DNA of 64,000 bases, taken from positions 64,192-128,191 of the forward strand of contig CAKKQB010000013.1 of assembly GCA_919901915.1 (NCBI GenBank), read 5' to 3'. The stretch comes from Omnitrophica bacterium GWA2_41_15 (GTDB lineage Bacteria > Omnitrophota > Gorgyraeia > Gygaellales > Profunditerraquicolaceae). Below the pieces are notes generated by a model. That model saw nothing but the letters and a program-made list of their open reading frames with translations. It ran no database searches and was not told where the DNA came from. The translations under genes and the position numbers were made by a program. Below, one piece after another: positions 8,013 through 64,000 of the stretch (position 1 is the stretch's first letter; each line of letters starts with the position of its first letter).

Positions 8013-8218
8013 ATTCTCATGGGGCTGTTGCGAAATGCCATTTTTCGTCATTCCGGCGAAAACCGGAATCCAGAACTCTTTGATTTTAATAGACTTATGG
8101 ATACCGGCGACCGAGGGCGAAATGACCGAGGAAGTGTCGGAGCCTAACTGGGCTCGACCTTTCGCCAATATGACGATTTTAATGTATTTTGCAACAGCCC
8201 CCTCATGGATTTATCCGT
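8013..8218. mobile_element. MITE family A (~200 bp) with ~20-bp TIRs CATGGGGCTGTTGCGAAAT and internal hairpin GTCATTCCGGCGAAARCCGGAATCCAG
   Basis: near-identical copy at 51988-52171; TIRs read directly; spurious ORF 8035-8259. Confidence 0.8.
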
Positions 8219-8255
8219 GTTTATCCGTGTTCTTTTATCCGTGTCAATCCGTGTT
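8207..8255 (-). promoter_or_regulatory. cluster of 4 direct TTATCCGTGT (minus: ACACGGATAA) motifs with 10-14-bp phasing, just after pilMN stop / upstream of pilO
   Basis: ttatccgtgtttatccgtgttcttttatccgtgtcaatccgtgtt. Confidence 0.6.
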
Positions 8256-18922: not shown

Positions 18923-19029
18923 TAGCGTAGAGCGTAGAGCGGATAGTAAAATTAGCATTTAGCGTAGAGCGTAGAGCGTTTAATAAAAGTCTTTTGCCTT
19001 TTCTCTACGCTCTACGCTATACGCTATCC
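18923..19029. repeat. heptamer-array palindromic repeat, family F (AGCGTAG/AGCGTAT/AGCGGAT units), between carA and carB
   Basis: tandem 7-bp units in inverted arrays around AT-rich spacers. Confidence 0.85.
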
Positions 19030-20107: not shown

Positions 20108-20136
20108 TAGCGTATAGCGGATAGCGTAGAGCGTAT
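20108..20136. repeat. family F heptamer array (single arm, 4 units) between purF and carA
   Basis: agcgtat agcggat agcgtag agcgtat. Confidence 0.7.
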
Positions 20137-20157
20137 AATAGTATAAATTATTATCTT

Positions 20158-29161: not shown

Positions 29162-29421
29162 AGTTCAGCTCTCGGAAGTACCCGTCGGTGTCATTGCGAG
29201 CCCGAAGGGCGAAGCAATCTCTTTAAAAAGATTGCTTCGTCGCTATCGCTCCTCGCAATGAGACTGCGTCATAATTCGGTTTTGGTGTCATTCCGGCGAA
29301 AGCCGGAATCCATTCTCCGGCAATAACACAACTCACTGGATTCCGGCTTTCGCCGGAATGACGAATTTTTAACGATTATGACACAGTCTGAATGACACAA
29401 GTACTTCCAAGAGCTGAACTA
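29162..29421. mobile_element. ~260-bp composite MITE bounded by 20-bp TIRs (AGTTCAGCTCTYGGAAGTAC) carrying a family C hairpin and a palindromic pair of family A hairpins
   Basis: TIRs at 29162-29181 and 29401-29421; internal gtcattgcgag...ctcgcaatgag (29188-29264) and 29286-29362. Confidence 0.7.
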
Positions 29422-33322: not shown

Positions 33323-34750
33323 TTAGATAATCGGCAAATTATTTTCTTGCGTCAAATACTTATCCATAAAATCAGCGCAGCGCCTTCCTTCTGAAATGGC
33401 CCAAACAATTAAAGACTGACCGCGACGCATATCTCCACAAGAAAAAACGCCTCGCCGAGAAGTCAGAAAACTTTCTTTTAACAAGTTGTTTCTCTCTGGG
33501 GGCAAAAAACCCAAGGCTAAAATTACCAAATCCCCATCGAGTTCAAATTCGCTTCCGGAAATTTCTTCCATTACAGAATGGCCTGATTCATTCTTCTTGA
33601 ATTCAACCCGGCAGCAAGAAAGCTTTTTTACGTGTCCATTCTCACCAATAAACTTTTTTGTGGAAACCGACCAATCGCGAATTCCAGCTTCTTGGTGGCT
33701 GGTAGTAGCCTTAAGAAGCAGCGGATACTTTGGCCAGGGATAATCACGCGTGCGGGATTCAGCCGGCCGCGGCATAATTTCAATCTGGGTGACGCTCTTC
33801 GCGCCTTGCCTATGCGCGACGCCGATACAATCCGCGCCGGTATCCCCGCCGCCAATCACCACAACTTTTTTATCTTTAGCATCAATAAGTTCATCCGAAG
33901 AAAATTTTACGCCTTGCGCTCTTTTATTTGATTGAATCAAATAATCCATCGCGAAATATATGCCTTTTAATTCCCTTCCTTCTATCTTTTCAGCCGCAGG
34001 CTGATCCGCCTTCGGCGGAAGATCCCGAGGAATACGAGAACCGCAAGCTAAACAAATCGCGTCAAACTCTTTTCTTGAATAAGGCGCCTTTAAATCCATA
34101 CCCACATTTATGCCCGGCATAAATTTTATTCCTTCCTTTTTCAAAATTTCTAAGCGCCGATCCAAAATCCTTTTTTCTAATTTAAAATCCGGGATCCCAT
34201 AGCGAAGAATACCGCCAATTTTATCATCCCGCTCAAACACCACTACATTATGCCCCGCCTTGTTTAATTGATCCGCGCAAGATAAGCCCGCAGGGCCAGA
34301 ACCAATAATTGCCACTTTTTTTCCGGTGCGCCTCTTAGGCGGATTAGGCTTAATAAATCCATGTTTAAACGCGTACTCAATTATTGCCAACTCATTCTCT
34401 CTTGTAGTTACCGCCTCATCATTAATCTCTAAAACACAGGCATATTCGCAAAGAGCCGGACAAATTCTGCCGGTAATCTCCGGAAAATTATTAGTAGCCG
34501 AAAGCAGCAAATAAGCCTTTTCCCACTTGCCGCGAAATAACAAATCATTCCATTCCGGGATATAATTACTAATGGGACAGCCCCAAAGACAAAACGGCGT
34601 CCCACAATCCATGCAGCGCGAAGCCTGCTCCATAGAATGTTCGACTGCAGGTAATATGCCCACTTCGCGATAATCTTGGACGCGTTCACAAACAGGCCTG
34701 CATTTAGATACTTGCCTTTTAACTTTTAAGAAACCTTTAATATCACCCAT
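33323..34750 (-). CDS. gltD: glutamate synthase small (beta) subunit
   Basis: 475 aa; two Cys clusters, GSGPAGL FAD and NADPH Rossmann motifs; overlaps gltB by 8 nt. Confidence 0.9.
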   Translation of the reverse strand: MGDIKGFLKVKRQVSKCRPVCERVQDYREVGILPAVEHSMEQASRCMDCGTPFCLWGCPISNYIPEWNDLLFRGKWEKAYLLLSATNNFPEITGRICPALCEYACVLEINDEAVTTRENELAIIEYAFKHGFIKPNPPKRRTGKKVAIIGSGPAGLSCADQLNKAGHNVVVFERDDKIGGILRYGIPDFKLEKRILDRRLEILKKEGIKFMPGINVGMDLKAPYSRKEFDAICLACGSRIPRDLPPKADQPAAEKIEGRELKGIYFAMDYLIQSNKRAQGVKFSSDELIDAKDKKVVVIGGGDTGADCIGVAHRQGAKSVTQIEIMPRPAESRTRDYPWPKYPLLLKATTSHQEAGIRDWSVSTKKFIGENGHVKKLSCCRVEFKKNESGHSVMEEISGSEFELDGDLVILALGFLPPERNNLLKESFLTSRRGVFSCGDMRRGQSLIVWAISEGRRCADFMDKYLTQENNLPII

Positions 34751-37700
34751 CTGATGCCTCCACCAACTCTATTTTCTCTTCTGTTTTTCTGCCTCCTAAT
34801 ACACGTTTATATTCAATGGGCATAACTTTTACAAATTTTTTTAATTCAGGAGTAAAATTATCTAAGATATTTTTCGCGCTGGAACTGCGCGTATAATGAT
34901 AGTGATTAGAAAGCAACTTCTCGATTGTTCGCGCGTCTTCTTCGGCCACGGCCTCAAGTATTACCATTTCCATATTGCACTTATTCTTAAAATCTCCGTC
35001 CTTATCCCAAACATAGGCGATACCGCCTGACATACCCGCGGCAAAATTTCTTCCGGTTCTGCCGATAACCACAACTCTGCCTCCGGTCATATATTCGCAA
35101 GCGTGATCTCCTACGCCCTCAACCACCGCGTAAAGGCCGGAATTCCTGATACAAAATCTCTCACCGGCAATCCCGCGGATATAGGCAGAGCCTAAAATTG
35201 CTCCGTAAAAAGTAGTATTGCCAATAATAATATTTTCTTCTACTTTGTAATTTGATTGCCTATCCGGATAGATGATAATTTTCCCTCCGGACATACCTTT
35301 ACCTACATAATCATTCGTCAGGCCTTCTAACTCAAGAGTAACTCCTTTGGCAAGCCAAGCGCCAAAACTTTGACCTGCCACACCCTTAAATTTAAAGTGT
35401 ATCGTATTCGCGGGTAAACCATCCTCCCCAAAAATACGACAAACTTCGCCGCTTAACATCGTGCCGACACTACGATTATGATTTCTAATGGATAGCTCTA
35501 TTTTAATTGGCTTCCTATTTTCCAAGGCGCCCCGAGCCAATTCGATAAGTTTTCTATCTAGAATATTGTCAATTCCGTAATCCTGTTTATAAGGAGCCAA
35601 ACCACTGCCCTCTGGCTTGCGGCTCGGGCTATGGGAAGCCCGACCATTGCCCTTTGGCTGATATAAAATCCGGGAAAAATCTATTTTCTTTGCTTTCCAG
35701 GGAAGAATCTTGCTATTTACTTCCAACAAATCAGCGCGGCCAATCAGATCATCTATTTTAACAATACCTAAACTACTCATAATCTGACGCAATTCCTGGG
35801 CAATGAAACGAAAATAATTTTCTACATATTCCGGCTTCCCGCTAAAGCGTTTCTCTAAAAGTTCATCCTGCGTAGCCACGCCAAGAGAACAGTTATTTAA
35901 GTGGCAATGTCTAAGCATAACACATCCCAAAACAACTAAGACTGAAGTACAAAATCCAAACTCCTCCGCGCCCAAAAGCGCGGCCACAGCCACATCCCTG
36001 CCGGTGCGCATTCCTCCGTCAACCTGAAGCCTCACCCTGCTTCTTAAATCATTTAAAACCAGGGTCTGATGTGTTTCGGCAATACCTAATTCCCAGGGAA
36101 GCCCGGCATGCTTAATGGAACTTAAGGGGGATGCCCCGGTGCCGCCATCTCCGCCGGAAATCAAAATCATATCCGCGTGCCCCTTAGCCACTCCCGTGGC
36201 AATAGTTCCTACTCCAATTTCAGAAACAAGTTTTACACTAACGCGCGCGCGCGGATTAACATTTTTTAAATCAAAAATTAGCTGGGCTAAATCTTCAATA
36301 GAATAAATATCATGATGCGGCGGCGGAGAAATCAAAGTTACGCCGGGAGTTGTATAACGAATCTTAGCGATAGCCGCGCTTACTTTGTGGCCGGGAAGCT
36401 GGCCGCCTTCCCCGGGCTTAGCGCCTTGCGCGATTTTAATCTGCAATTCATCAGCATTTACTAAGTAATTCGTAATAACGCCAAAACGCCCGGAAGCAAC
36501 CTGCTTTATAGCGCTGCGCTTAGAATCTCCGTTTGGGAACGCGACAAAACGCGCTGGATCCTCTCCTCCTTCGCCGGTATTAGACCTACCCCCCAATCTA
36601 TTCATCGCGATAGCTATTGTTTCATGGCAAGCCTTACTAATTGAGCCAAAACTCATCGCGCCGGTAACAAAACGCCGGACGATTTCGCTAACCGGCTCTA
36701 CTTCTTCAATGGGAATAGGCTTAACTTCTTTAAATTTAAAAAGGCTTCTTAAAGTAGCAGGATTACTTGATTGATCATTAATGAGTTTCGCAAACTCCTG
36801 GTATTTTTTAGAATCATTATTTCTTACCGCACCCTGCAAAGCGGCAATACTATCCGGATTCCAAAGATGAAATTCACCGTCTTTCTTCCACTGATACAGG
36901 CCGCCAGTTGCTAAAAATGGCCTTTGTAAACCATCGACCGCGAATGCCTCTTTGTGCCTTAGAAGCGCTTCCTTCTCAATAATTCCTAAATCAATACCTC
37001 CAATACGGGAAACTGTTCCGGTGAAATATTTATCAATTACCTCTGAACTTAGGCCCAATGCCTCGAATATCTGCGCGCCCCGATAACTTTGTAAAGTAGA
37101 AATTCCCATTCTTGAGAGTATCTTTAGAATGCCTTTATCCACTGCCTTAATATAATGCTTTATCGCGGACTCTAAATCTAAGTCAACTTCCTTATCTCTA
37201 ATTAAAAAGGCGGCCGCTTCATAGGCAAGATACGGATTAATACAATCCGCGCCATACCCAAACAAGAGCGCGAAATGATGCACCTCGCGCGGAGAAGCGC
37301 TTTGAACAATAATACTTACCTGGGTACGCAGCGCCTTTCTTACCAAATCCTGATGCACACAAGCCGTTGCCAATAACGCGCTAAGGCAGGCCTTATCTTT
37401 ATTTATACCCTGATCACTTAAAATAACAAAAGTAAAACCCTCTTTTATCGCGGCTTCTGTTTCTTTGCAAATCCTGTCTAATGCTTTTTTAAAATTGTTT
37501 TTTTCTGAAATATTAAACAGAAGAGAAATTGTTTTTGTTTTAAAACCGTTCTTTTTTATATCGTGAATCTTTTTCAGATCTTCATTTGTCAAAATAGGAT
37601 TTTTTACTAATAACTTATGGCAATGCCGCGGCTGCTCATCCAAAATATTTTTTTGCGGCCCTAAATACGTATCAAGGCTCATCACCAGCTCTTCCCTGAT

Positions 37701-39386
37701 TGGGTCAATTGCCGGATTAGTAACCTGCGCGAATAACTGTTTAAAATAACTATAAAGCAACTGCGGCTTATCAGATAAAACCGCATGCGGGGTATCATTA
37801 CCCATTGAGCCATTCGGTTCATGAGAATCTTCCACCATAGGTTTAATGATAAATTTAAAATCCTCGCGGGTGTAACCGAAAGCTTTGAATAGAGTTAACG
37901 GATCTACTTTATTAGCGGATAGCGGATAGCTTTTATTAGCGTAGAGCGTAGAGCGTAAAGCGTAGAGCGTTTTGCTTTTCCTATCCGCTATACGCTCTAC
38001 GCTATCCGCTGATAATTTATCCAACTCTAACATATTTTTTTTAAGCCATTCTCCATACGGCTTAGAGCTTGCCATTGTTTCTTTTATTTCCTTATCTTCA
38101 ATTATGCGGCCTTCTTCTGTATCAACAAAAAGCATCTTTCCCGGTTCAAGCCTTCCTGAGATAGAAATATCATCCGGCGCGATATCTAAAACCCCTGCCT
38201 CTGAAGCCATAACTACCAAATTCTTTTTGGTCACAATATAGCGGCTAGGCCTTAAACCATTTCTGTCTAAAACCGCGCCAATCCTTACGCCATCAGTAAA
38301 GGCAATGGCTGCCGGTCCATCCCAGGACTCAATAAGACAAGTGTGGTATTTATAAAAATCTCTTACATTTTGACTCAAAAGATTATTCTGCTCCCAAGCG
38401 CTGGGTATTAACATCATCATCGCGTGAGACAAAGATCTACCCGATAAAACTAAAAGTTCAAAAACATTATCAATAGCCGCGGAATCGCTTCCCCCGGGAA
38501 CAATCACCGGAAAAATTTCCTTTAAATCCTTACCAAATAATTTACTTTTTAGTAAACCTTGGCGGGCAGTCATCCAATTTATATTCCCTTTTAAGGTATT
38601 TATCTCTCCATTATGCGCCAAGAACCGAAAAGGCTGCGCCAGATCCCAAGTGGGAAAAGTATTGGTACTATAACGGGAATGCACTAAACAAATCGCGCTT
38701 TGAAGAGCGCTGTCTTTTAAATCCAAAAAGAATTTCTCCAACTGCTCAGGCATAAGCAGGCCTTTATAAGAAAGCGTGCGGCAAGAAAGATTAGTAATAT
38801 AAAAAAATGATTTTTGTTTTAAGAATAAAGAGCGGATTTCGTTTTCTATTTTCTTGCGGATAATATAAAGCCTGCGCTCAAAATCAAGGCCATCCTTACC
38901 TATACTTAGACCTTTACCTTTACCTATAAAAACCTGCTCAATCACCGGTTGAGTAAGCTTTGCGGTTTTGCCAATCGCGGAATTATCAACCGGGACAATC
39001 CGCCAACCAAGCAAGGCCTGGCCCTCTTCTTTAATAATTCTAGCAAAGATACCCTTACATAACGCGCGCTCTTTTTTGTTAGTGGGAAGAAATACCATGC
39101 CTATCCCATAATCGCCAGAGGACGGTAAAATAAAATTTTCCTTCGCGCAGGCTTTTGCCAAAAATTCATGTGGCGCCTGAATAAGTATGCCTGCGCCATC
39201 CCCGGTCTCTGGGTCGGCGCCAGTTGCCCCGCGATGAGAAAGACGGCCTAAAACCTCCATGCCCTGTTTAATAATTTCATAAGATTTTTTGCCTTTGACA
39301 TCGCAAACAAATCCTACGCCGCAGGAATCATGTTCAAAACGGGAATCATACAACCCGTATTTTTCTAATTTCTGACGATTATCCAT
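34743..39386 (-). CDS. gltB: glutamate synthase large (alpha) subunit; carries in-frame heptamer-repeat insertion
   Basis: 1547 aa; MDNRQ..CGVGFV Ntn glutaminase, FMN and GXGXG domains; residues ~459-492 encoded by palindromic repeat at 37912-38010. Confidence 0.95.
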   Translation of the reverse strand: MDNRQKLEKYGLYDSRFEHDSCGVGFVCDVKGKKSYEIIKQGMEVLGRLSHRGATGADPETGDGAGILIQAPHEFLAKACAKENFILPSSGDYGIGMVFLPTNKKERALCKGIFARIIKEEGQALLGWRIVPVDNSAIGKTAKLTQPVIEQVFIGKGKGLSIGKDGLDFERRLYIIRKKIENEIRSLFLKQKSFFYITNLSCRTLSYKGLLMPEQLEKFFLDLKDSALQSAICLVHSRYSTNTFPTWDLAQPFRFLAHNGEINTLKGNINWMTARQGLLKSKLFGKDLKEIFPVIVPGGSDSAAIDNVFELLVLSGRSLSHAMMMLIPSAWEQNNLLSQNVRDFYKYHTCLIESWDGPAAIAFTDGVRIGAVLDRNGLRPSRYIVTKKNLVVMASEAGVLDIAPDDISISGRLEPGKMLFVDTEEGRIIEDKEIKETMASSKPYGEWLKKNMLELDKLSADSVERIADRKSKTLYALRSTLYANKSYPLSANKVDPLTLFKAFGYTREDFKFIIKPMVEDSHEPNGSMGNDTPHAVLSDKPQLLYSYFKQLFAQVTNPAIDPIREELVMSLDTYLGPQKNILDEQPRHCHKLLVKNPILTNEDLKKIHDIKKNGFKTKTISLLFNISEKNNFKKALDRICKETEAAIKEGFTFVILSDQGINKDKACLSALLATACVHQDLVRKALRTQVSIIVQSASPREVHHFALLFGYGADCINPYLAYEAAAFLIRDKEVDLDLESAIKHYIKAVDKGILKILSRMGISTLQSYRGAQIFEALGLSSEVIDKYFTGTVSRIGGIDLGIIEKEALLRHKEAFAVDGLQRPFLATGGLYQWKKDGEFHLWNPDSIAALQGAVRNNDSKKYQEFAKLINDQSSNPATLRSLFKFKEVKPIPIEEVEPVSEIVRRFVTGAMSFGSISKACHETIAIAMNRLGGRSNTGEGGEDPARFVAFPNGDSKRSAIKQVASGRFGVITNYLVNADELQIKIAQGAKPGEGGQLPGHKVSAAIAKIRYTTPGVTLISPPPHHDIYSIEDLAQLIFDLKNVNPRARVSVKLVSEIGVGTIATGVAKGHADMILISGGDGGTGASPLSSIKHAGLPWELGIAETHQTLVLNDLRSRVRLQVDGGMRTGRDVAVAALLGAEEFGFCTSVLVVLGCVMLRHCHLNNCSLGVATQDELLEKRFSGKPEYVENYFRFIAQELRQIMSSLGIVKIDDLIGRADLLEVNSKILPWKAKKIDFSRILYQPKGNGRASHSPSRKPEGSGLAPYKQDYGIDNILDRKLIELARGALENRKPIKIELSIRNHNRSVGTMLSGEVCRIFGEDGLPANTIHFKFKGVAGQSFGAWLAKGVTLELEGLTNDYVGKGMSGGKIIIYPDRQSNYKVEENIIIGNTTFYGAILGSAYIRGIAGERFCIRNSGLYAVVEGVGDHACEYMTGGRVVVIGRTGRNFAAGMSGGIAYVWDKDGDFKNKCNMEMVILEAVAEEDARTIEKLLSNHYHYTRSSSAKNILDNFTPELKKFVKVMPIEYKRVLGGRKTEEKIELVEASDG
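37912..38010. repeat. family F heptamer-array palindrome inserted in frame inside gltB
   Basis: agcggat x2 ... agcgtag x4 ... ctatccgct atacgct ctacgct atccgct; translates LSADSVERIADRKSKTLYALRSTLYANKSYPLSANK. Confidence 0.85.
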
Positions 39387-39391
39387 ATTTT

Positions 39392-39558
39392 TAGCGTATA
39401 GCGTATAGCGTAGAGCGTAGAGCGTATAGCGTATAGCGTAGAACGTAGAGCGTAGAGCGGATAGCGGATAGTAAAAATCTATGTTTTAACTATATGTTAT
39501 CCGCTATTCCTACACGCTTTCTTTCCTATCCGCTAAACGCTATACGCTCTACGCTAAT
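39392..39558. repeat. largest family F locus (11-unit left arm + degenerate right arm) between glnN and gltB
   Basis: direct reading of tandem heptamers. Confidence 0.85.
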
Positions 39559-44661: not shown

Positions 44662-44741
44662 TAGCGGATAGCGTATAGCGTATATATAGGTTTTACTATC
44701 CGCTATACGCTCTACGCTATACGCTATACGCTTGATATTTT
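44662..44741. repeat. family F palindrome between nfnB and nfnA
   Basis: agcggat agcgtat agcgtat / atccgct atacgct ctacgct atacgct atacgct. Confidence 0.85.
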
Positions 44742-45569
44742 AAGATTACAGATATGCTTTTCTTTATCTAAATAAACACTGTTCCTCTTTGTCAATTCAT
44801 CCCAATTTACTTGAGTTCCGTCAAATTCCGGGCCATCAACGCAAGCAAATTTCGTCTTACCTGCCACAGTTACACGGCAACAGCCGCACATTCCAGTAGC
44901 ATCTACCATCAAAGGATTCAAAGAAACAATGGTTTTAACTTTAAAATCGCTAGCAACCTCGCAAACTCTTCTCATCATCGGTATCGGGCCGACTGCGTAA
45001 ATTAGCGAATAGCGGATAGCGGATAGTGAATAGCTTAATACCTCCTGCAAAATATCAGTAACAAAGCCTTTCCTGCCGCAAGAACCGTCATCAGTGGTTA
45101 TATAAAGCTCATCGCAAAACACCTTTAGCTCCTGCTCCAAAATCAATAAATCATTGTTTCTTGCGCCCAGTATAGTAGTAGTATGGTTTCCCGCTTCTTT
45201 CAAAGCCTTGGCAACCGGATAAATCTCCGCAATTCCTACGCCTCCGCCTACAAGAATTAAATTTCCAAAATTTTTAATCTCAGTAGCATGCCCCAGGGGC
45301 CCGGCCAAAGCGTATAATGAATCACCAACCTCCATCTTGCCCAGCAACTTAGTAGTTAAGCCAACCTCTTGAAAGATCAAGGTAATTGTGCCTATGTCAG
45401 AATTTTTATCTACTATAGTTAGAGGTATCCTTTCGCCTTCCTCGCATACCATAAGAACAACAAATTGGCCCGGTCTTACTTTCCTGGCAATAAGCGGGCT
45501 TAAGATTTCAAAGCGCTTAATTGTTACGTCTTGCGTTTGTGCTAAAATTTCTTTTTTGATTATCCGCAT
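44724..45569 (-). CDS. nfnA: NfnA/SudB (PyrK-like FAD/[2Fe-2S] subunit); in-frame heptamer-repeat insertion
   Basis: 281 aa; C-terminal CGCC...C 2Fe-2S; segment LSYSLSAIRYSLI encoded by repeat 45003-45036. Confidence 0.75.
   Translation of the reverse strand: MRIIKKEILAQTQDVTIKRFEILSPLIARKVRPGQFVVLMVCEEGERIPLTIVDKNSDIGTITLIFQEVGLTTKLLGKMEVGDSLYALAGPLGHATEIKNFGNLILVGGGVGIAEIYPVAKALKEAGNHTTTILGARNNDLLILEQELKVFCDELYITTDDGSCGRKGFVTDILQEVLSYSLSAIRYSLIYAVGPIPMMRRVCEVASDFKVKTIVSLNPLMVDATGMCGCCRVTVAGKTKFACVDGPEFDGTQVNWDELTKRNSVYLDKEKHICNLKISSV
45003..45036. repeat. family F single arm inserted in frame in nfnA
   Basis: agcgaat agcggat agcggat agtgaat. Confidence 0.75.
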
Positions 45570-45740: not shown

Positions 45741-46478
45741 TTACTTTACATCACTGTAATCATTCTTATTTTTTAATTCGGCAGTTAAAATAATTGCTTC
45801 GGCGATTTCGCGCATGGACTTACGTTTATCCATACTCTGTTTTTGAATTAATCTGTAGGCCTCGGATGGTTTTACATCTGCCTCCTGGGAAAGTATATCC
45901 TTTGCCCGTTCAATCAGCTTGCGGGTAACTAAGGCTTCTTCAGCGCTATGCGCCCGCAAAGATAATTCAGCATTTTCAATGGCCATAGCCGTCTGATTGG
46001 CCAAAGTTGTAAGAAGACTTATCTCGGATTTTGTAAACTTATGTCTTTTTGAGGTATAACAATTAAGCACGCCGATTACTGTCCCTCTTACTGCCAAAGG
46101 GACACTAGCCAAAGAACAAAGCCCTTCTTTTTTAGCGATGTCCCTATTTAAGTAATCCGCGTCTTCCCTGACATCCAAAACAACCATTGATTTATTATCC
46201 CGCGCAACCGCTCCCGCAATCCCCTCTCCTAATTTTATATTGGGTTTTTTATTGTAGCTTTGAGAAATAGACTGGGTCGCGCGTACAACTAATTCTTTCC
46301 TCTCGGAATCAAGAAGCATCAAAGAAGAGATTTTTAAATTCATCACCTGGGCAGTAACCTCAACAACTAAACGAAGAAGCTCGTCCAGATACAAGCCTGA
46401 AGTAATCAGGTTCGCGACCTTAGAAATCGCCTCAATCTGCTTTGTATAAACCTGATAACCCTTTACCTTTTTAATCAT
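45741..46478 (-). CDS. GAF-ANTAR RNA-binding antitermination regulator
   Basis: 245 aa; N-terminal GAF; C-terminal ANTAR (EAYRLIQKQSMDKRKSMREIAEAII). Confidence 0.8.
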   Translation of the reverse strand: MIKKVKGYQVYTKQIEAISKVANLITSGLYLDELLRLVVEVTAQVMNLKISSLMLLDSERKELVVRATQSISQSYNKKPNIKLGEGIAGAVARDNKSMVVLDVREDADYLNRDIAKKEGLCSLASVPLAVRGTVIGVLNCYTSKRHKFTKSEISLLTTLANQTAMAIENAELSLRAHSAEEALVTRKLIERAKDILSQEADVKPSEAYRLIQKQSMDKRKSMREIAEAIILTAELKNKNDYSDVK

Positions 46479-47642: not shown

Positions 47643-47650
47643 CGTTTTCA

Positions 47651-47718
47651 GCGTTTAGCGGATAGCGTTTAGCGTATAGTTTTTTTTATCCGCTATACGC
47701 TCTACGCTATACGCTATT
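47651..47718. repeat. family F palindrome between lrp and aminotransferase
   Basis: arms around T8 loop. Confidence 0.85.
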
Positions 47719-51987: not shown

Positions 51988-52171
51988 GAGTCTGTTGCGA
52001 AATGCCATTTTTCGTCATTCCGGCGAAAGCCGGAATCCAGAACTCTTTGATTTCAATAGGCTTATGGATACCGGCGACCGAGGGCGAAATGCCCGAGGAA
52101 GTGTCAGAGCCCAACTGGGCTCGACCTTTCGCCGGTATGACGGTTTTAATGTATTTCGCAACAGTCCCTCG
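51988..52171. mobile_element. MITE family A, second copy
   Basis: ~95% identical to 8013-8218 including TIRs. Confidence 0.8.
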
Positions 52172-53644: not shown

Positions 53645-53700
53645 TAGCGCGGATAGCGTTTAATTTTTTCTATACGCTATACGCTCTACGCTATACGCTA
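53645..53700. repeat. family F palindrome between nrdJ and apgM
   Basis: agcgcggat agcgttt ... atacgct atacgct ctacgct atacgct. Confidence 0.85.
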
Positions 53701-56149: not shown

Positions 56150-56225
56150 TGCTGGCTCTTGTCATTCCGGCGAAAGCCGGAATCCAGTCTTCTGGACCCC
56201 GGCTTTCGCCGGGGTGACATCTTAA
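56150..56225. repeat. pair of family A-type hairpins upstream of nrdJ
   Basis: gtcattccggcgaaagccggaatccag + ctggaccccggctttcgccggggtgac. Confidence 0.65.
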
Positions 56226-59775: not shown

Positions 59776-61116
59776 TTAATGAAATTTTTTCTTGGCTTTT
59801 TTTGAGATACACAAGGCGGGATTTTTCCAAAACTCTTTGAGCGTATAATAAGCTTTGCGGGGAGAGCGTTTATTCAACCTTTGTCCTGCCGGGTCTTTAC
59901 TGCCTAATAAGGCATCCTCAGGCTCTTGCGACAATGCCACAATACCAAACCACTCTTCATTCATATTTTTATTGCCTTCTACCTTTATATCAAAATAATA
60001 GTTTCCGTTAGACCAATTCGAACCAGTATCATGCTCGAGCCACGTATCAGAGGCATGCTCATCATACTTCCACCATTCATCTGACCACTCAAAAATAACG
60101 CCGCCTAAACAATTGCCCGCGCCTTTCTTATTACCCGCCAGATTCCCATAAATCTGACACCATTGAGATTCCAGGAAAAATGCCTGCATATCCTGATCTT
60201 CCTTTTTTAAATAGGCATCATAACAATCAGCACCAATTTCTACCAAAAGAATTGGCTTGTCAAAAGTTAATTTTAAAGATTTAAAAAGGTTTCCAAAGGT
60301 CTTACCTCTATAGATAATGCAAGCAATCAAATCTACGTCAGGACAATATTCCTTCGCGTATTCCAACCCTGTCAACTCGCCATTCCCCAATGCCACAGGA
60401 TGTTGAGGGTCGAGTTCATGGACAGCTTTCGTCAAATCATTTACATAAGAATAATAAATCCTGGAACGTATGGCTCCTTGTTTCTGGGGATCTGGTTCTT
60501 TTTCTGCTTCTTCGCAGGCCCAAGGATTAACACGGCCTAAACAAGAATAGTTATTTTCATTGCCCATAATCCACATAAGCAATCCGGGCTCGTCCTTATA
60601 TAAGCTGACCATATCCAGGACATCTTTCTTTATTCTTTCCTGAAAACCCTTATCTCCATAGAATGGGCCGGGATACTCCCAAAAAGATAACCAATGGCCT
60701 AAAATTGTGCGTATTCCGTAAAGCTGATAAAGCTCGCTAATTACTTTTTTTACCGCTTCTGGATTATCTCCCGGCTGATAAATTCTTATGGTATTAACCC
60801 CCATCTCATGCATCAGTTTTCCGTCTACAATCCAAGGTTTATTGGGGTCAGACCACCAGTCATATTCGTGATTCTTACCAATAGGAACAGGATTATAACA
60901 AACCCCTTTTACGATGTAAGGTTTTTTATCTACTATCAACTGGTAGTAATTATTTTTAAGTTTTTTAATATAAACTCCGGGCTTTGGCTTTGAGGCCATA
61001 CCCATTAAAAACAGAACACAGAGCACAGAAAACAGAGAACAGAATATTTTTCTCTGTGCTCTGCGCTCTGTTCTCTGTGCTCTATTTTCCGTTCTCTTAT
61101 TCATACTTAATTTCAT
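59776..61116 (-). CDS. putative clan GH-A (TIM-barrel) glycoside hydrolase; N-terminus encoded by heptamer repeat
   Basis: 446 aa; MGVNTIRIY, IMGNENNY (acid/base), GGVIFEWSDEWWK (nucleophile region); paralog of 62381-63961; start uncertain (alternative Met at MGMASKP). Confidence 0.65.
   Translation of the reverse strand: MKLSMNKRTENRAQRTERRAQRKIFCSLFSVLCVLFLMGMASKPKPGVYIKKLKNNYYQLIVDKKPYIVKGVCYNPVPIGKNHEYDWWSDPNKPWIVDGKLMHEMGVNTIRIYQPGDNPEAVKKVISELYQLYGIRTILGHWLSFWEYPGPFYGDKGFQERIKKDVLDMVSLYKDEPGLLMWIMGNENNYSCLGRVNPWACEEAEKEPDPQKQGAIRSRIYYSYVNDLTKAVHELDPQHPVALGNGELTGLEYAKEYCPDVDLIACIIYRGKTFGNLFKSLKLTFDKPILLVEIGADCYDAYLKKEDQDMQAFFLESQWCQIYGNLAGNKKGAGNCLGGVIFEWSDEWWKYDEHASDTWLEHDTGSNWSNGNYYFDIKVEGNKNMNEEWFGIVALSQEPEDALLGSKDPAGQRLNKRSPRKAYYTLKEFWKNPALCISKKAKKKFH
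61001..61074. repeat. family G heptamer palindrome forming 5' end of GH gene
   Basis: aacagaacacagagcacagaaaacagagaacagaa / tctgtgctctgcgctctgttctctgtgctct. Confidence 0.8.
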
Positions 61117-62290
61117 CTAAATAAAATGTTACTCCTTGCGGATTATTGTCAAGATTAGCCGCCCAGCAGAAACCACCGATAATATAGGACATATCCTTGC
61201 CCTTTAAATCAATAGAATACTGTGTCCATTCTTTGTTCAGGATAACCGGGCCAATATTAGCTGAATCAGAATCAGAATATTCCCCCATTATTCCGCCAAC
61301 CTTAAATTCCTCGATACGCTCTCCTCCATTTTCTCCGTGCGCCCAAAAGGATAATTTAACAGCCTTGGACAGATCATAACCCGCGTCTATTGTTCCCCAG
61401 TTATTAGCCGGCTCCTGCCAAAACATCCCCGCCCAACGACTGCCTTGAGAAGCCTTATTACCATAAATAATTTTAATACAAGTATCTCCTAAATAAGGGT
61501 TCTCCTTCGACGTTCCATTAAATTTCAAATCACTGTAATCACCCATCCAACCCGAAGAAATAAAGTGGTTTATGGAAGACCTATCAGCATAAACATAGAA
61601 AGGCATCTCCTTTTGTTTTTTGCCTTCCGGTTTCATAGCTGAATCAACCTCAAACTTTATATCGTCAATAAAAAATTTGGCTCCTTCGAGATTCAAATCA
61701 GCGGTAGTAATCCACGAGAAACCACCGCTTACACAAGATAAGTCTTTCCCCGCAAGATTAATTGTATATTGCTTCCATACATCAGTAAGTTCGATCGGCC
61801 CCATTTGCGCGTCTACTGAATCTGGATATGTATTTTTTGGCTCAATACCAATTCCGCCGACCTTTACCTTCTCTATCACTTCCCCGCCTTTAGCGCCTCT
61901 TGCCCAAAAAGTTAACTTAGTCATCCCGGTTAAATCATACCCGCCTTTTTTGCTTCCCCAATTATTAGCCGGATTCTGCCAATAAACACCTACCCATTCC
62001 TTGCCTTGCGATCTCTTGGCGGTATATTCAAATTCAATGCAAGTACTTCCTGAATGAGGGTCTTCCGTAGACTGATCATTCATCTTAACATCGCCATAAT
62101 CACCCATCCATCCGGAAGGGGCATAATGATTTTCACGGCTATTTCTATCCGCGTAAACCACGAATTCCTTAGTGCCCGCGACACTCTCAACAACTTGAGT
62201 TGTTTCTCCGGTTTCCCCTGCTTCCTGCGCCATTACGCAAAAAGGCAACGCCAAAATCGCTGCTACTAACACCACTAACAACTTCTTCAT
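61097..62290 (-). CDS. secreted protein with two tandem ~170-aa carbohydrate-binding-module-like repeats
   Basis: 397 aa; signal peptide; internal duplication YADR.S..NHY.PSGWMGDY...W.G..WQ.PANNWG..GYDL..L.FWA.G..GGE.IE..KVGGI. Confidence 0.55.
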   Translation of the reverse strand: MKKLLVVLVAAILALPFCVMAQEAGETGETTQVVESVAGTKEFVVYADRNSRENHYAPSGWMGDYGDVKMNDQSTEDPHSGSTCIEFEYTAKRSQGKEWVGVYWQNPANNWGSKKGGYDLTGMTKLTFWARGAKGGEVIEKVKVGGIGIEPKNTYPDSVDAQMGPIELTDVWKQYTINLAGKDLSCVSGGFSWITTADLNLEGAKFFIDDIKFEVDSAMKPEGKKQKEMPFYVYADRSSINHFISSGWMGDYSDLKFNGTSKENPYLGDTCIKIIYGNKASQGSRWAGMFWQEPANNWGTIDAGYDLSKAVKLSFWAHGENGGERIEEFKVGGIMGEYSDSDSANIGPVILNKEWTQYSIDLKGKDMSYIIGGFCWAANLDNNPQGVTFYLDEIKYE

Positions 62291-62308
62291 TTTACCCCTC
62301 CCATTTTT

Positions 62309-62378
62309 CGTATTACGTGATGCGTGACGCGTATCGCGTTAAAATTTTCGCAATACGCACAACGCACGACGCAATACG
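62309..62378. repeat. family H heptamer palindrome (CGTGACG/CGTATCG units) between CBM and GH genes
   Basis: cgtatta cgtgatg cgtgacg cgtatcg ... gcaatac gcacaac gcacgac gcaatac. Confidence 0.75.
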
Positions 62379-62380
62379 AA

Positions 62381-63961
62381 TTACCTCCACATCTTCTTAT
62401 ACTGATAATACGACTTCCTCAACTGCCTTAAAAAAGGGCTTACCTTCCCATCCCCTTGGCCGCAAATACCTAGCCACTCCTCATGCATAAAACCATCGGG
62501 AAACGGCCCGGTCCATAAACCCTTTGTATCATGCATTGAAGGCTCGTACGCTTTCCACCATTCATCTAACCACTCAAAAACAACCCCGCCTATGGAATTA
62601 CCATCTCCCGCGCAAAATGCCGAATTCTTAAGTATGTCATCCCATGTAGCGCTGTGATATTGAGCCTGCAAATTCTCGGCTTCATCAGAAGTTTTTCCTT
62701 CAGCATAAGCAGGACAGCCATACTCTGTAATAAACACCGGCTTATCCGCCTCTTCTTTTACCTGACGCCAAATTTGGCCAAAACCGTAATTGCCTCGATA
62801 AGCATTAGTGCCAAAAATATCTATATCCGGGGCATCTTTGCCAAACTTATCTAAAAACAAAACGTCACCGCTGCATATAGCTACCGGGTGTTCAGGGTCA
62901 ATGGATTTAATACGTATAGCTACCTCATTAGCAAATTTAAAAAAAGCATCCGGCTCCTTATCCGCGTTGCAAGCATAACCATAAACATTTTCATTACCCA
63001 AAAGCCAGAAAAGCACAAATGGCTCATCTTTAAATTCCATAACCATATCCGTTACGGATTTCATCATATTTTTCTTATGTTCCTGATTATTATAATCTGT
63101 TCCGGGATTCCAGGACGCGCCTGAACCAATGGCATACTTACCTAAAAAGTCCCCCATAATCACCCTAATACCGTATTTATCATAAAGTTCACGCAGAAGT
63201 TCCTTATCTATTTTTTGCGGATGATGATACAGCCTTATAGTATTTACACCCATCTCCTTCATTAACTTAAAATCTCCCACTGCCGGCTCATTCTTATCCC
63301 AAAGATTATTTTTATTTTTATCCACAAAACTATCATATGGGCCGTCAGGCTTGCCATTACCATTAAAATCCTCATTCATCCAATTTCCCATCGTACCTTC
63401 ATCCGGAGATTGACCAACTTTCGTAGGCGCGTAAGTTACACCACGGATTTGGTAAGGTTTTTTATCCACGAATAGTTCCCAGTCACCGGTTTCATATTGG
63501 ATAAGATTGACCTTACCACTGCCTAACCTCTTTTTTATACTTAACAGGCTTTTATCCGGCTTAAACCTTAATTTTTCTAAAATATTTATCTTAACAAATT
63601 TTCCCGGATTAGCAATTACCACATCGTTAGAAACATCGTTATCGAAACCATTTTCTATCCTTACGTAAGCGTCGGCAAGCTTGTAACCTAACTGGGGATT
63701 CTGCCGCAAGAGAAAATTTATCTTAGAAATAGCGGCTTGCGCCAAATACCATGGCGTATGCCAATAAGTCCAGCCGTAACTTCCCGGAAAATGCACTAAA
63801 ATAGCGTAGTAACATTTTATCGCTTGTTTTACCAACCCGGACTTTTCCAACATCAACGCGGTATAAAATAATTTTACGCCTGTCGGCTCAGGCGCGGTTT
63901 GCCATTTTAAAAATGCCGCTTCTAAATCCGGCGAATGCATAAAATCCCAATGCGAACCCAA
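62381..63961 (-). CDS. putative clan GH-A glycoside hydrolase (paralog), 5' end may extend beyond window
   Basis: 526 aa; MGVNTIRLY, LLGNENVYG, GGVVFEWLDEWWK; ORF-track start is TTG at 63959-63961 with open frame upstream to 64000. Confidence 0.65.
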   Translation of the reverse strand: MGSHWDFMHSPDLEAAFLKWQTAPEPTGVKLFYTALMLEKSGLVKQAIKCYYAILVHFPGSYGWTYWHTPWYLAQAAISKINFLLRQNPQLGYKLADAYVRIENGFDNDVSNDVVIANPGKFVKINILEKLRFKPDKSLLSIKKRLGSGKVNLIQYETGDWELFVDKKPYQIRGVTYAPTKVGQSPDEGTMGNWMNEDFNGNGKPDGPYDSFVDKNKNNLWDKNEPAVGDFKLMKEMGVNTIRLYHHPQKIDKELLRELYDKYGIRVIMGDFLGKYAIGSGASWNPGTDYNNQEHKKNMMKSVTDMVMEFKDEPFVLFWLLGNENVYGYACNADKEPDAFFKFANEVAIRIKSIDPEHPVAICSGDVLFLDKFGKDAPDIDIFGTNAYRGNYGFGQIWRQVKEEADKPVFITEYGCPAYAEGKTSDEAENLQAQYHSATWDDILKNSAFCAGDGNSIGGVVFEWLDEWWKAYEPSMHDTKGLWTGPFPDGFMHEEWLGICGQGDGKVSPFLRQLRKSYYQYKKMWR

Positions 63962-64000
63962 AAGCCTTTTTTGCTCCTTTGCCTTCTTAAATTCGGGGTC

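Follow-up and report, generated by a model that had tools for sequence, protein, structure and literature searches.

A heptamer-built hairpin between two genes of an Omnitrophota operon as a candidate intercistronic RNA element

In a 64,000-nucleotide (nt) stretch of contig CAKKQB010000013.1 from Omnitrophica bacterium GWA2_41_15 (hereafter the window), a run of seven-nucleotide units lies between two genes and is followed by its own reverse complement. What built this inverted array, and does its period, or the stem that its two halves can form, serve the cell? The original prediction described four heptamers on the plus strand, an AT-rich spacer, and four reverse-complement heptamers, and the sequence matches that description; the inverted repeat is present as placed, at 62309-62378, except that its arms reach 2 nt further on each side, covering 62307-62380 (74 bases). 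We explain the element by a composite reading to which we give about an even chance: a heptamer hairpin that was built by slippage, templated from arm to arm, and retained as a post-transcriptional intercistronic RNA element. The components of this reading differ in strength. The element is likely to be a real, selected hairpin of the sense-strand RNA, and the sequence leans toward an origin by slippage and templating, whereas the class of post-transcriptional function predicted below is tentative. The 7-nt periodicity would accordingly be the footprint of stem construction, not of a binder.

The inverted repeat and the spacer it fills

On the plus strand, the first arm (62307-62338) reads cgtatta cgtgatg cgtgacg cgtatcg cg, followed by a 10-nt loop made of A and T only (ttaaaatttt) and by the second arm (62349-62380), cg caatacg cacaacg cacgacg caatacg. 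Each arm is 32 nt long, and as DNA the two are 78% Watson-Crick complementary. Nearly all genes of the window, which has a G+C content of 40.5%, lie on the minus strand, and it is on this strand that the hairpin is described in what follows. Its 5' arm (62349-62380) has the sense RNA sequence UUCGUAU UGCGUCG UGCGUUG UGCGUAU UGCG, about 4.6 degenerate heptamers with a GCGU core. The loop (62339-62348) reads AAAAUUUUAA, and the 3' arm (62307-62338), CGCGAUA CGCGUCA CGCAUCA CGUAAUA CGAA, lies in register with the 5' arm.

The period is well defined inside both arms despite the degeneracy of the units. Identity at lag 7 is 19/25 in the 5' arm and 18/25 in the 3' arm, and at lag 14 it is 13/18 and 10/18, while every other lag from 1 to 13 gives at most 10 matches. 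The lag-7 value was reached in none of 20,000 shuffles, even with any lag from 3 to 12 allowed (p < 5e-5). Tandem Repeats Finder calls only 62355-62373 (period 7, 2.7 copies, 91% matches); it catches no more than the best part of the array because the units, TGCGTNN on the sense strand, are degenerate.

In transcription order, the upstream gene encodes a glycoside hydrolase (GH) with a Glyco_hydro_2_C-type TIM barrel, 777 amino acids (aa) long in the full contig. Its stop codon TAA (62381-62383, minus strand) adjoins the first base of the stem. At the other end, the sequence AAAAU separates the last stem base (62307) from a Shine-Dalgarno (SD) sequence read from the sequence as GGGAGGGG (62302-62295), which begins 5 nt past the 3' end of the hairpin. 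The ATG that it serves (62288-62290) lies 16 nt past the hairpin and opens the gene of a conserved secreted protein of 397 aa (61097-62290, minus strand). The hairpin occupies the 90-nt spacer from the GH stop codon to the SD sequence and ATG, and since the stop codon abuts the stem and the SD sequence follows 5 nt after it, the hairpin is the whole intercistronic spacer and is untranslated. The surrounding operon runs in the order two PilZ genes, a solute-binding lipoprotein, two ABC permeases, the 777-aa GH, the 397-aa protein, a 446-aa protein, ROK, and LacI, and the locus is part of a sugar-utilization operon. The original prediction placed the array between a gene resembling a carbohydrate-binding module (CBM) and a downstream GH gene. 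The location holds, but the GH gene is upstream in transcription order, and the CBM-like label could not be confirmed: the 397-aa protein has no Pfam match at E < 1 and no sequence match in the PDB. It is 66-80% identical to hundreds of proteins from metagenome-assembled genomes of Candidatus Omnitrophota.

A very stable hairpin immediately after a stop codon might be expected to act as a terminator or attenuator for the upstream ABC-transporter and GH genes, either without a U-tract or as a Rho-dependent pause site, and T runs do follow the hairpins that lie past the far end of the 397-aa gene, in the window as in many relatives. The element shares with intrinsic terminators a G+C-containing hairpin right after the stop codon, but its 3' flank, AAAAAUGGGAGGGG, has no U-tract, its 32-bp stem is about three times the usual length, its loop has 10 nt where terminators have 3-8, and the next gene starts 16 nt on. 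A consensus scan at the element found neither a canonical terminator nor a sigma-70 promoter. Since these 16 nt cannot accommodate a promoter, a terminator that worked efficiently would shut off a protein whose conservation across the phylum is 66-80%, and we regard termination as improbable. Searched against Rfam 15 at the gathering score, the whole window returned only a tRNA, which lies elsewhere; at E <= 10, the locus itself drew sub-threshold generic hairpins, such as miRNA precursors (22.5 bits against a gathering score of 90). A CRISPR array was also considered and rejected, given the 7-nt unit, the absence of spacers, and a CRISPR-DR33 score of 13.7 bits against a gathering score of 39.

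Pairing and conservation of the sense-strand hairpin

The minus (mRNA) strand of the element folds with a minimum free energy of -41.1 kcal/mol (z = -5.4) and the plus strand with -32.4 kcal/mol (z = -6.0); on either strand, none of 200 shuffles folds as well. Five of the seven DNA mismatches between the arms turn into G-U pairs on the minus strand, and 30 of the 32 stem positions are therefore paired there, the remaining two being single mismatches. The non-Watson-Crick pairs thus number five G-U and no A-C. Pairing is also specific to the register, with 30/32 positions paired as aligned and 19/25 when the arms are slipped by 7 nt in either direction; hence, the variable positions of the units are mirrored between the arms.

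The nearest relative found, GCA_030018895.1 (L001), provides the sole informative ortholog, at 80% protein identity for the 397-aa protein and 81% DNA identity. L001 came from a search for contigs that encode the protein; genome and metagenome scans with the 397-aa protein gave nothing closer than 75% protein identity. Contigs from three assemblies of the same population, ENA and Logan contigs among them, match the window at 100% identity and thus show no gain or loss of units. L001 has a hairpin at this site (L001 4555-4623) that folds with -37.6 kcal/mol (z = -6.7) in the sense orientation and -21.9 kcal/mol (z = -3.5) in the antisense orientation. The energy gap between the strands is thus 15.7 kcal/mol in L001, compared with 8.7 kcal/mol in the window. 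The L001 hairpin likewise has five G-U and no A-C pairs, and it has TCGTG units; in its 5' arm, the lag-7 identity is 15/20, with a significant period of 7.

Aligned to each other and scored on the structure of the window, these two sequences, which as a pair have low covariation power, differ at about 30% of stem positions, yet 93.2% of the cells are paired; the alignment contains a 5-nt gap near the loop. When the register is slid by 1-3 columns, pairing falls to 15-59%. The changes comprise three double compensatory substitutions (A-U to C-G, U-A to G-C, and G-C to C-G) and six one-sided substitutions that preserve pairing through wobble; L001 breaks only a single pair that the window forms. 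Just one wobble pair is common to both sequences, so the two hairpins represent nine independent G-U states and no A-C.

Intercistronic hairpins that set differential expression are known from the repetitive extragenic palindromic (REP) hairpins between malE and malF and from the RNase III sites among the early genes of phage T7. The element resembles these cases in placing a long, stable stem in a spacer of a sugar-transport operon, with its end right ahead of the following ribosome-binding site, but unlike it, they have no known periodic repeat structure. Its predicted pairing gives a stem of at least 20 bp with internal mismatches, the size accepted for an RNase III substrate. Three roles would fit such a position. 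The hairpin may act as a barrier to 3' exonucleases or as a processing site for a double-strand RNase; it may serve as an insulator that holds other pairing away from the downstream initiation region; or it could be a device that ribosomes have to open as they terminate. In each case, expression of the 397-aa cistron would be adjusted against that of the GH and transporter cistrons upstream of it.

Taken alone, the element is ordinary: a well-conserved hairpin between two cistrons that does not constitute a new kind of system. It is the example with the best evidence for RNA-level conservation, and its interest lies in the lineage-wide pattern to which it belongs.

Related arrays in the operon, the window, and the phylum

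The window holds two further families of heptamer hairpins, F and G, to which the unit of the element (H) had been thought unrelated. This does not hold for F. In the 5' arm on the sense strand, H reads GCGT-N-N-T and F reads GCGT-A-(T/G)-A, so that both have a GCGT core; the arm orientation is identical, and the difference from F (GCGTA[T/G]A) lies chiefly in a single constant position. When as many as two mismatches are allowed, the H pattern GCGTNNTGCGTNNTGCGT matches all F arrays of the window (23 hits where 0.24 would be expected), while the exact pattern is single copy in the window and occurs in no other genome among 163 loci. H is best regarded as an F-like hairpin that is old and has become degenerate. 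The units of family G (AGAGNAC), on the other hand, are different from F and H, as originally stated.

At least nine sites in 35 kb of the window carry dispersed F-type copies, some of them in frame within genes, which is also how REPs behave (PMC3733652). Rickettsia palindromic elements do the same. The element might be a mobile palindrome of the REP type, or of the type of miniature inverted-repeat transposable elements, that inserted between two genes. Like REPs and the bacterial interspersed mosaic elements that they form, it is an imperfect palindrome in the range of 20-40 bp between unidirectional genes, and REPs, too, lie mostly just 3' of coding regions. REPs bear a GTAG or CGTC tag, are palindromes between genes with some inside genes, are associated with RAYTs, and are thought to act as RNA hairpins in mRNA stabilization and termination (PMC3733652). 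They are, however, high-copy elements of a single sequence without 7-nt periodicity, whereas the element is single copy in the window and the fetched loci and consists of heptamers without a tag. Its flanks (...GGAGGUAA before UUCGUAU... and AAAUGGG after ...AUACGAA) contain no unpaired GTAG or CGTC, no target duplication is evident, and a Pfam scan of 38 open reading frames (ORFs) of the window found no transposase domain, IS200/IS605-type RAYT included. The ortholog in L001 shows vertical descent. Taken together, insertion of a mobile element is very improbable here.

Period 7 stands out far beyond this locus. The window contains 13 period-7 arrays (383 nt) and at most six for any other period from 4 to 12, and in 1.26 Mb from about 80 other Omnitrophota species we count 72 arrays of period 7 against 27 of period 6 and 13 of period 8. 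Among 163 strong hairpins (arms of at least 16 nt) in 1.33 Mb, 55 have a lag-7 identity of at least 0.6 within an arm, compared with 1-8 for lags of 5, 6, 8, 9, and 10; the pooled autocorrelation of the arms is 0.44 at lag 7 and 0.42 at lag 14, over a baseline near 0.26. With metagenome loci added (up to 1.8 Mb), 192 arrays reduce to 107 canonical heptamers. The search for further period-7 families proposed in the original prediction, which combined array detection with clustering of the units in the window and in Omnitrophota loci, thus found many more. The common architecture that it had proposed persists in the period and only in part otherwise. A clear inverted partner within 110 nt accompanies 59 of 180 arrays (11 in a non-reversed control), so the inverted layout is not obligatory. 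The expectation of a shared loop composition is not borne out: the loops of heptamer hairpins range from 3 to 40 nt, with an AT fraction of 0.71 against 0.62 in non-heptamer hairpins and about 0.6 in the genome, and these hairpins share no loop module.

The sharp preference for 7 over 6 and 8 would be expected if the period itself were functional, as an array of sites for a cold-shock, S1-like, or DNA-binding regulatory protein that reads the sequence in 7-nt steps. Many Omnitrophota arrays do lie within a few nucleotides of start codons. CspB of B. subtilis binds heptamer repeats with one protein per unit (reviewed in PMC4679880), and S1, Csp, or CsrA has been proposed as the binder of TAACTGA repeats adjoining start codons (PMC4679880). 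Yet 107 units provide no shared motif, and the units of the element are both degenerate and base-paired in the hairpin, hence not available in single-stranded form. Such a binder is quite improbable. The recurrence of one architecture with many unrelated units argues against a single sequence-specific binding site, and here the preference of the original prediction for a common generating mechanism over a conserved binding site is upheld.

Its candidate for that mechanism, a dedicated enzyme system for multiplying arbitrary 7-mers and duplicating them as inverted copies, fares less well. Many unrelated units do occur with the same period and often the same layout, and species differ in which heptamer they have at a given orthologous position. 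Nevertheless, the Pfam scan of the proteins of the 64-kb window revealed no candidate enzyme, two-thirds of the arrays are without a clear inverted partner, and an excess of heptamers is known in phyla that lack this architecture (PMC4692102, PMC4679880), which makes a general property of polymerases the simpler explanation. We consider a dedicated system highly unlikely. Heptanucleotide slippage, template switching at quasi-palindromes, and selection for RNA pairing suffice in principle.

How these processes may have acted at the element can be outlined as follows. A short F-like seed with a GCGT core would have grown by slippage-type duplication of heptamers, and its arms would have been held complementary through templating from arm to arm, through selection, or through both. 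Template switching at quasi-palindromes is known to keep arms complementary. The closest known kind of repeat are the heptanucleotide simple sequence repeats (SSRs) of bacteria, which the element matches in its 7-nt period (two to three or more copies) and its intergenic position near a start codon. As Mrazek et al. (2007) are cited in PMC4679880 and PMC4692102, heptanucleotides are the most abundant class of long SSR, slippage was proposed as their source, and 7 nt was suggested to match the DNA segment held by the polymerase. TAACTGA heptamers adjoin start codons in Beggiatoaceae (PMC4679880), and GGGAATC in Xanthomonas and GGGGA(C/T)T in Nostoc, some of them as inverted pairs, occupy intergenic sites that are conserved in position and vary in length (PMC4692102). 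The heptamers GGGACCG and MTYCTGA of Geobacter metallireducens, where four-unit elements occur (PMC2700814), and the tandem heptanucleotides of Calothrix and Nostoc are of the same kind as the element, and heptamers in Nostoc affect the expression of recF and recO (bioRxiv 10.1101/2022.06.06.494920).

The Omnitrophota arrays resemble these SSRs in being mostly intergenic and near starts, in keeping their position while length and sequence vary, and in forming some inverted stem-loop pairs. They depart from them in several respects. In the genomes with known heptanucleotide SSRs, one or a few units dominate, whereas the 107 unit types of Omnitrophota include several per operon, and the pairing of about one-third of the arrays into hairpins, the translated copies, and the sense-strand wobble and compensatory change of the element set them apart from the SSRs described. 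Our literature search found no report on such heptamer repeats in Omnitrophota.

At the site preceding the SD sequence of the 397-aa gene, other Omnitrophota have heptamer hairpins that are non-homologous and end 14-22 nt before the ATG. Their units are GCATATC/GATAAGC in L104, AAAAGTA/CTTTTAA in L113 and L127, and GCATATG/CATAAGC in L152, and L158 and others have hairpins of this kind as well; further species show direct A-rich heptamer arrays, unrelated hairpins, or nothing at this site. In the close pair L116/L127, one other array differs by exactly one 7-nt unit.

All of this could also be produced without function, as a by-product of lineage-wide heptamer slippage and quasi-palindrome template switching in which the arms are re-templated and G-U pairs follow from strand-biased C>T/A>G change. 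We hold this explanation to be unlikely, though it deserves serious consideration, and a number of observations speak for it and against selection. At four-fold sites, the sense strand has a skewed composition (T 2119, A 1201, G 1378, and C 1247), which could neutrally favor G-U over A-C by about 1.4-1.9 fold, and under this skew, the 9:0 ratio of G-U to A-C in the element and L001 has a p of about 0.01-0.02 rather than 0.002. Hairpins across the survey have a G-U to A-C ratio of 93:56 (p = 0.003 before allowing for the skew). We dropped this ratio as proof of RNA selection, since the neutral skew may give 1.4-1.9:1 and the F hairpins of the window trend in the opposite direction, with one G-U and six A-C pairs and similar energies on both strands; only locus-specific wobble counts are therefore used. 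Because the F hairpins lack a sense bias, RNA-level selection is not common to all heptamer hairpins.

In relatives at 66-75% protein identity, the hairpin at the orthologous site is often absent, or its structure is different, so any function must be dispensable or replaceable. Unit types number 107, and arrays and hairpins occur wherever constraint is low, for example in stop-to-start spacers, signal-peptide regions, an interdomain linker in gltB, and a C-terminal tail. The copies within coding DNA fit mutational filling with or without function, and the translated sister elements show that any tolerant stretch can acquire arrays, as is characteristic of a mutational process. Covariation statistics from a single close ortholog are weak, and the shuffle control is uninformative with two sequences. 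Lastly, transcription, processing, and an effect of the element on expression are all predictions from sequence. What a by-product does not readily explain is the kind of imperfection in the stem: re-templating predicts perfect Watson-Crick pairing, whereas nine independent wobble states against no A-C pair exceed even the most generous neutral expectation. The large energy gap between sense and antisense recurs in two lineages, and the stem has outlasted a divergence at which a neutral spacer should be largely randomized.

A broader and more speculative version of the composite reading, which we consider doubtful, is that Omnitrophota possess a lineage-specific route to new sequence in which arbitrary heptamers are seeded, expanded, mirrored into hairpins, and then co-opted. 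The element would then be one product of a pipeline from repeat to function, possibly driven by an unusual replication or repair enzyme, and co-opted hairpins would become intercistronic RNA elements, ready-made signal peptides, or interdomain linkers. Irrespective of this, the units found in Omnitrophota offer a natural experiment on mutational origin versus selection for RNA pairing, translation initiation, or signal-peptide coding, which rests on units that are paired or unpaired, non-coding or translated, and different between species at orthologous positions. That the intergenic DNA of bacteria is over-rich in 7-nt repeats has been on record since 2007, with no accepted cause or function (summarized in PMC4679880 and PMC4692102).

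The other arrays of the operon show this variety over a short distance. On the far side of the 397-aa gene lies a hairpin of the G family (G2; AGAGNAC units, 61008-61095, minus strand) with -50.4 kcal/mol in the sense and -36.1 kcal/mol in the antisense orientation. Beyond the end of the window, on the same contig just past position 64000 (L002), the operon contains at least five more unit types (TCGTGAA, CTGTTTT, GCCTGTT/AACCGGC, AGCTGAT, CAGCCGT, and CTTACCA). A TTCGTGA/ATCGTGA hairpin of the TCGTGAA type (L002 1471-1520) directly follows a PilZ stop codon about 5.5 kb upstream of the element, and (CTGTTTT)5 (L002 1571-1601) codes for the solute-binding protein's lipoprotein signal peptide. 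A GCCTGTT/AACCGGC hairpin (L002 2851-2905) ends 6 nt before a permease ATG, (AGCTGAT)2.5 (L002 3826-3848) abuts the next ATG, and (CAGCCGT)4 and (CTTACCA)4 (L002 4703-4806) lie inside the signal peptide of the GH.

Family F has its own setting. F-type arrays at 18924-19027, 20108-20137, 39392-39556, 44662-44732, 47650-47717, and 53655-53700 fill the spacers of nitrogen-metabolism genes (purF, carA, carB, glnA3, gltB, nfnAB, an aminotransferase, and apgM). Often they start with or within the stop codon and stop 5-8 nt short of an ATG without an SD sequence, and one arm has 11 units. A gene for an RNA-binding GAF-ANTAR antitermination regulator (45741-46478, minus strand) lies amid this cluster. 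The F hairpins were considered as ANTAR targets and dropped, as their loops are not paired or dual hexaloops and Rfam returned no match. A reading of TACGCT in the F unit as a TAnnnT -10 box of leaderless mRNAs was also set aside, since the spacing fits two loci only and the hexamer is G+C-rich; the idea is inapplicable to the element, whose gene has an SD sequence.

A separate, conserved motif, GGAGGTAGAAAGGAGG(C), is found in the leader of the 397-aa gene, 60-130 nt upstream of it, in many distant Omnitrophota (L005, L007, L009, L021, L084, L087, L110, and others). Ahead of it there are often ...GCTCATTGGAGG and a short stem-loop (ATAACTTATG...CATAAGTTAT). The motif may belong to a leader or regulatory RNA, or may represent two SD-like sites in tandem.

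Arrays in coding sequence and other repeats of the window

Several relatives of the element are translated. F3, an F-type hairpin of 117 nt (39 codons; 37899-38015, minus strand), lies in frame in gltB (ORF 34743-39386), between the GATase_2 (amidotransferase) and central domains, where the protein has 38 residues compared with 12 in B. subtilis GltA (7mfm_G). A second F-type array of 4.6 TAGCGAA/TAGCGGA copies (45003-45034, minus strand) lies in an NfnA/PyrK-like subunit (ORF 44724-45569) and encodes SYSLSAIRYSLIY, at a position where the small subunit of Pyrococcus NfnI (5jca_S) has EEG---RKIDLVH.

From an ATG at 61116 that overlaps the end of the 397-aa gene, the G2 hairpin introduced above reads MNKRTENRAQRTERRAQRKIFCSLFSVLCVLFLMGMAS; it is probably coding, supplying the next gene with its signal peptide. 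Eighteen relatives keep this frame open through the orthologous hairpin, where it encodes a charged and then a hydrophobic segment that often bears a lipobox. Other secreted proteins have the same design, for example in L010 (MMNKLKAKSVKCKFAVQSLKLLILSLSFTLFAFHFTLA before ERDK), and so do the solute-binding protein and the GH gene of this genome. The purine-rich 5' arm of such a hairpin encodes Lys, Arg, Gln, and Glu, giving a charged n-region, and its complement encodes Phe, Leu, Ser, and Cys, giving a hydrophobic h-region; it is through this bias that such a hairpin reads as a signal peptide. For annotation, this carries the warning that long "intergenic" hairpins in the phylum may overlap true start codons and signal peptides, and that operon spacers here can be a hairpin and nothing else.

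Palindromic and short-unit repeats are tolerated in frame within genes in the Rickettsia palindromic elements and in the opa-type repeats of leader peptides, the latter lying in signal-peptide-coding regions with a unit length that is not a multiple of three. F3 resembles the Rickettsia elements as an in-frame palindrome inside a gene. The comparison with both kinds concerns F3 and G2 and not the element itself, which is non-coding. A second kind of intragenic palindrome occurs in the phylum as in-frame insertions of 24, 39, and 48 nt between close relatives (L011/L102, L116/L127, L090/L092, and L111/L114); these are G+C-rich palindromes (TCCCGCC...GGCGGGA) in coding DNA.

The window also contains repeats that are not built of heptamers. 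A palindrome of the form GTCATTCCGGCGAAAGCCGGAATCCA...TGGATTCCGGCTTTCGCCGGAATGAC is present in two copies (29287-29362 and 56160-56219), one with a perfect 26-bp stem, and is a REP-like dispersed element. Decamer repeats (TTTATCCGTG) at 8210-8255, 14013-14046, 14692-14734, and 15178-15198 lie upstream of type IV pilin genes, which are represented there by ORFs with an N_methyl motif at 14737-15617, and a perfect 464-nt tandem duplication (14714-15598) spans two of the pilin genes. Finally, a dispersed repeat of 177 nt occurs twice in the same orientation, at 8025-8201 and about 51992-52168, with the two copies 93.8% identical and both non-coding.

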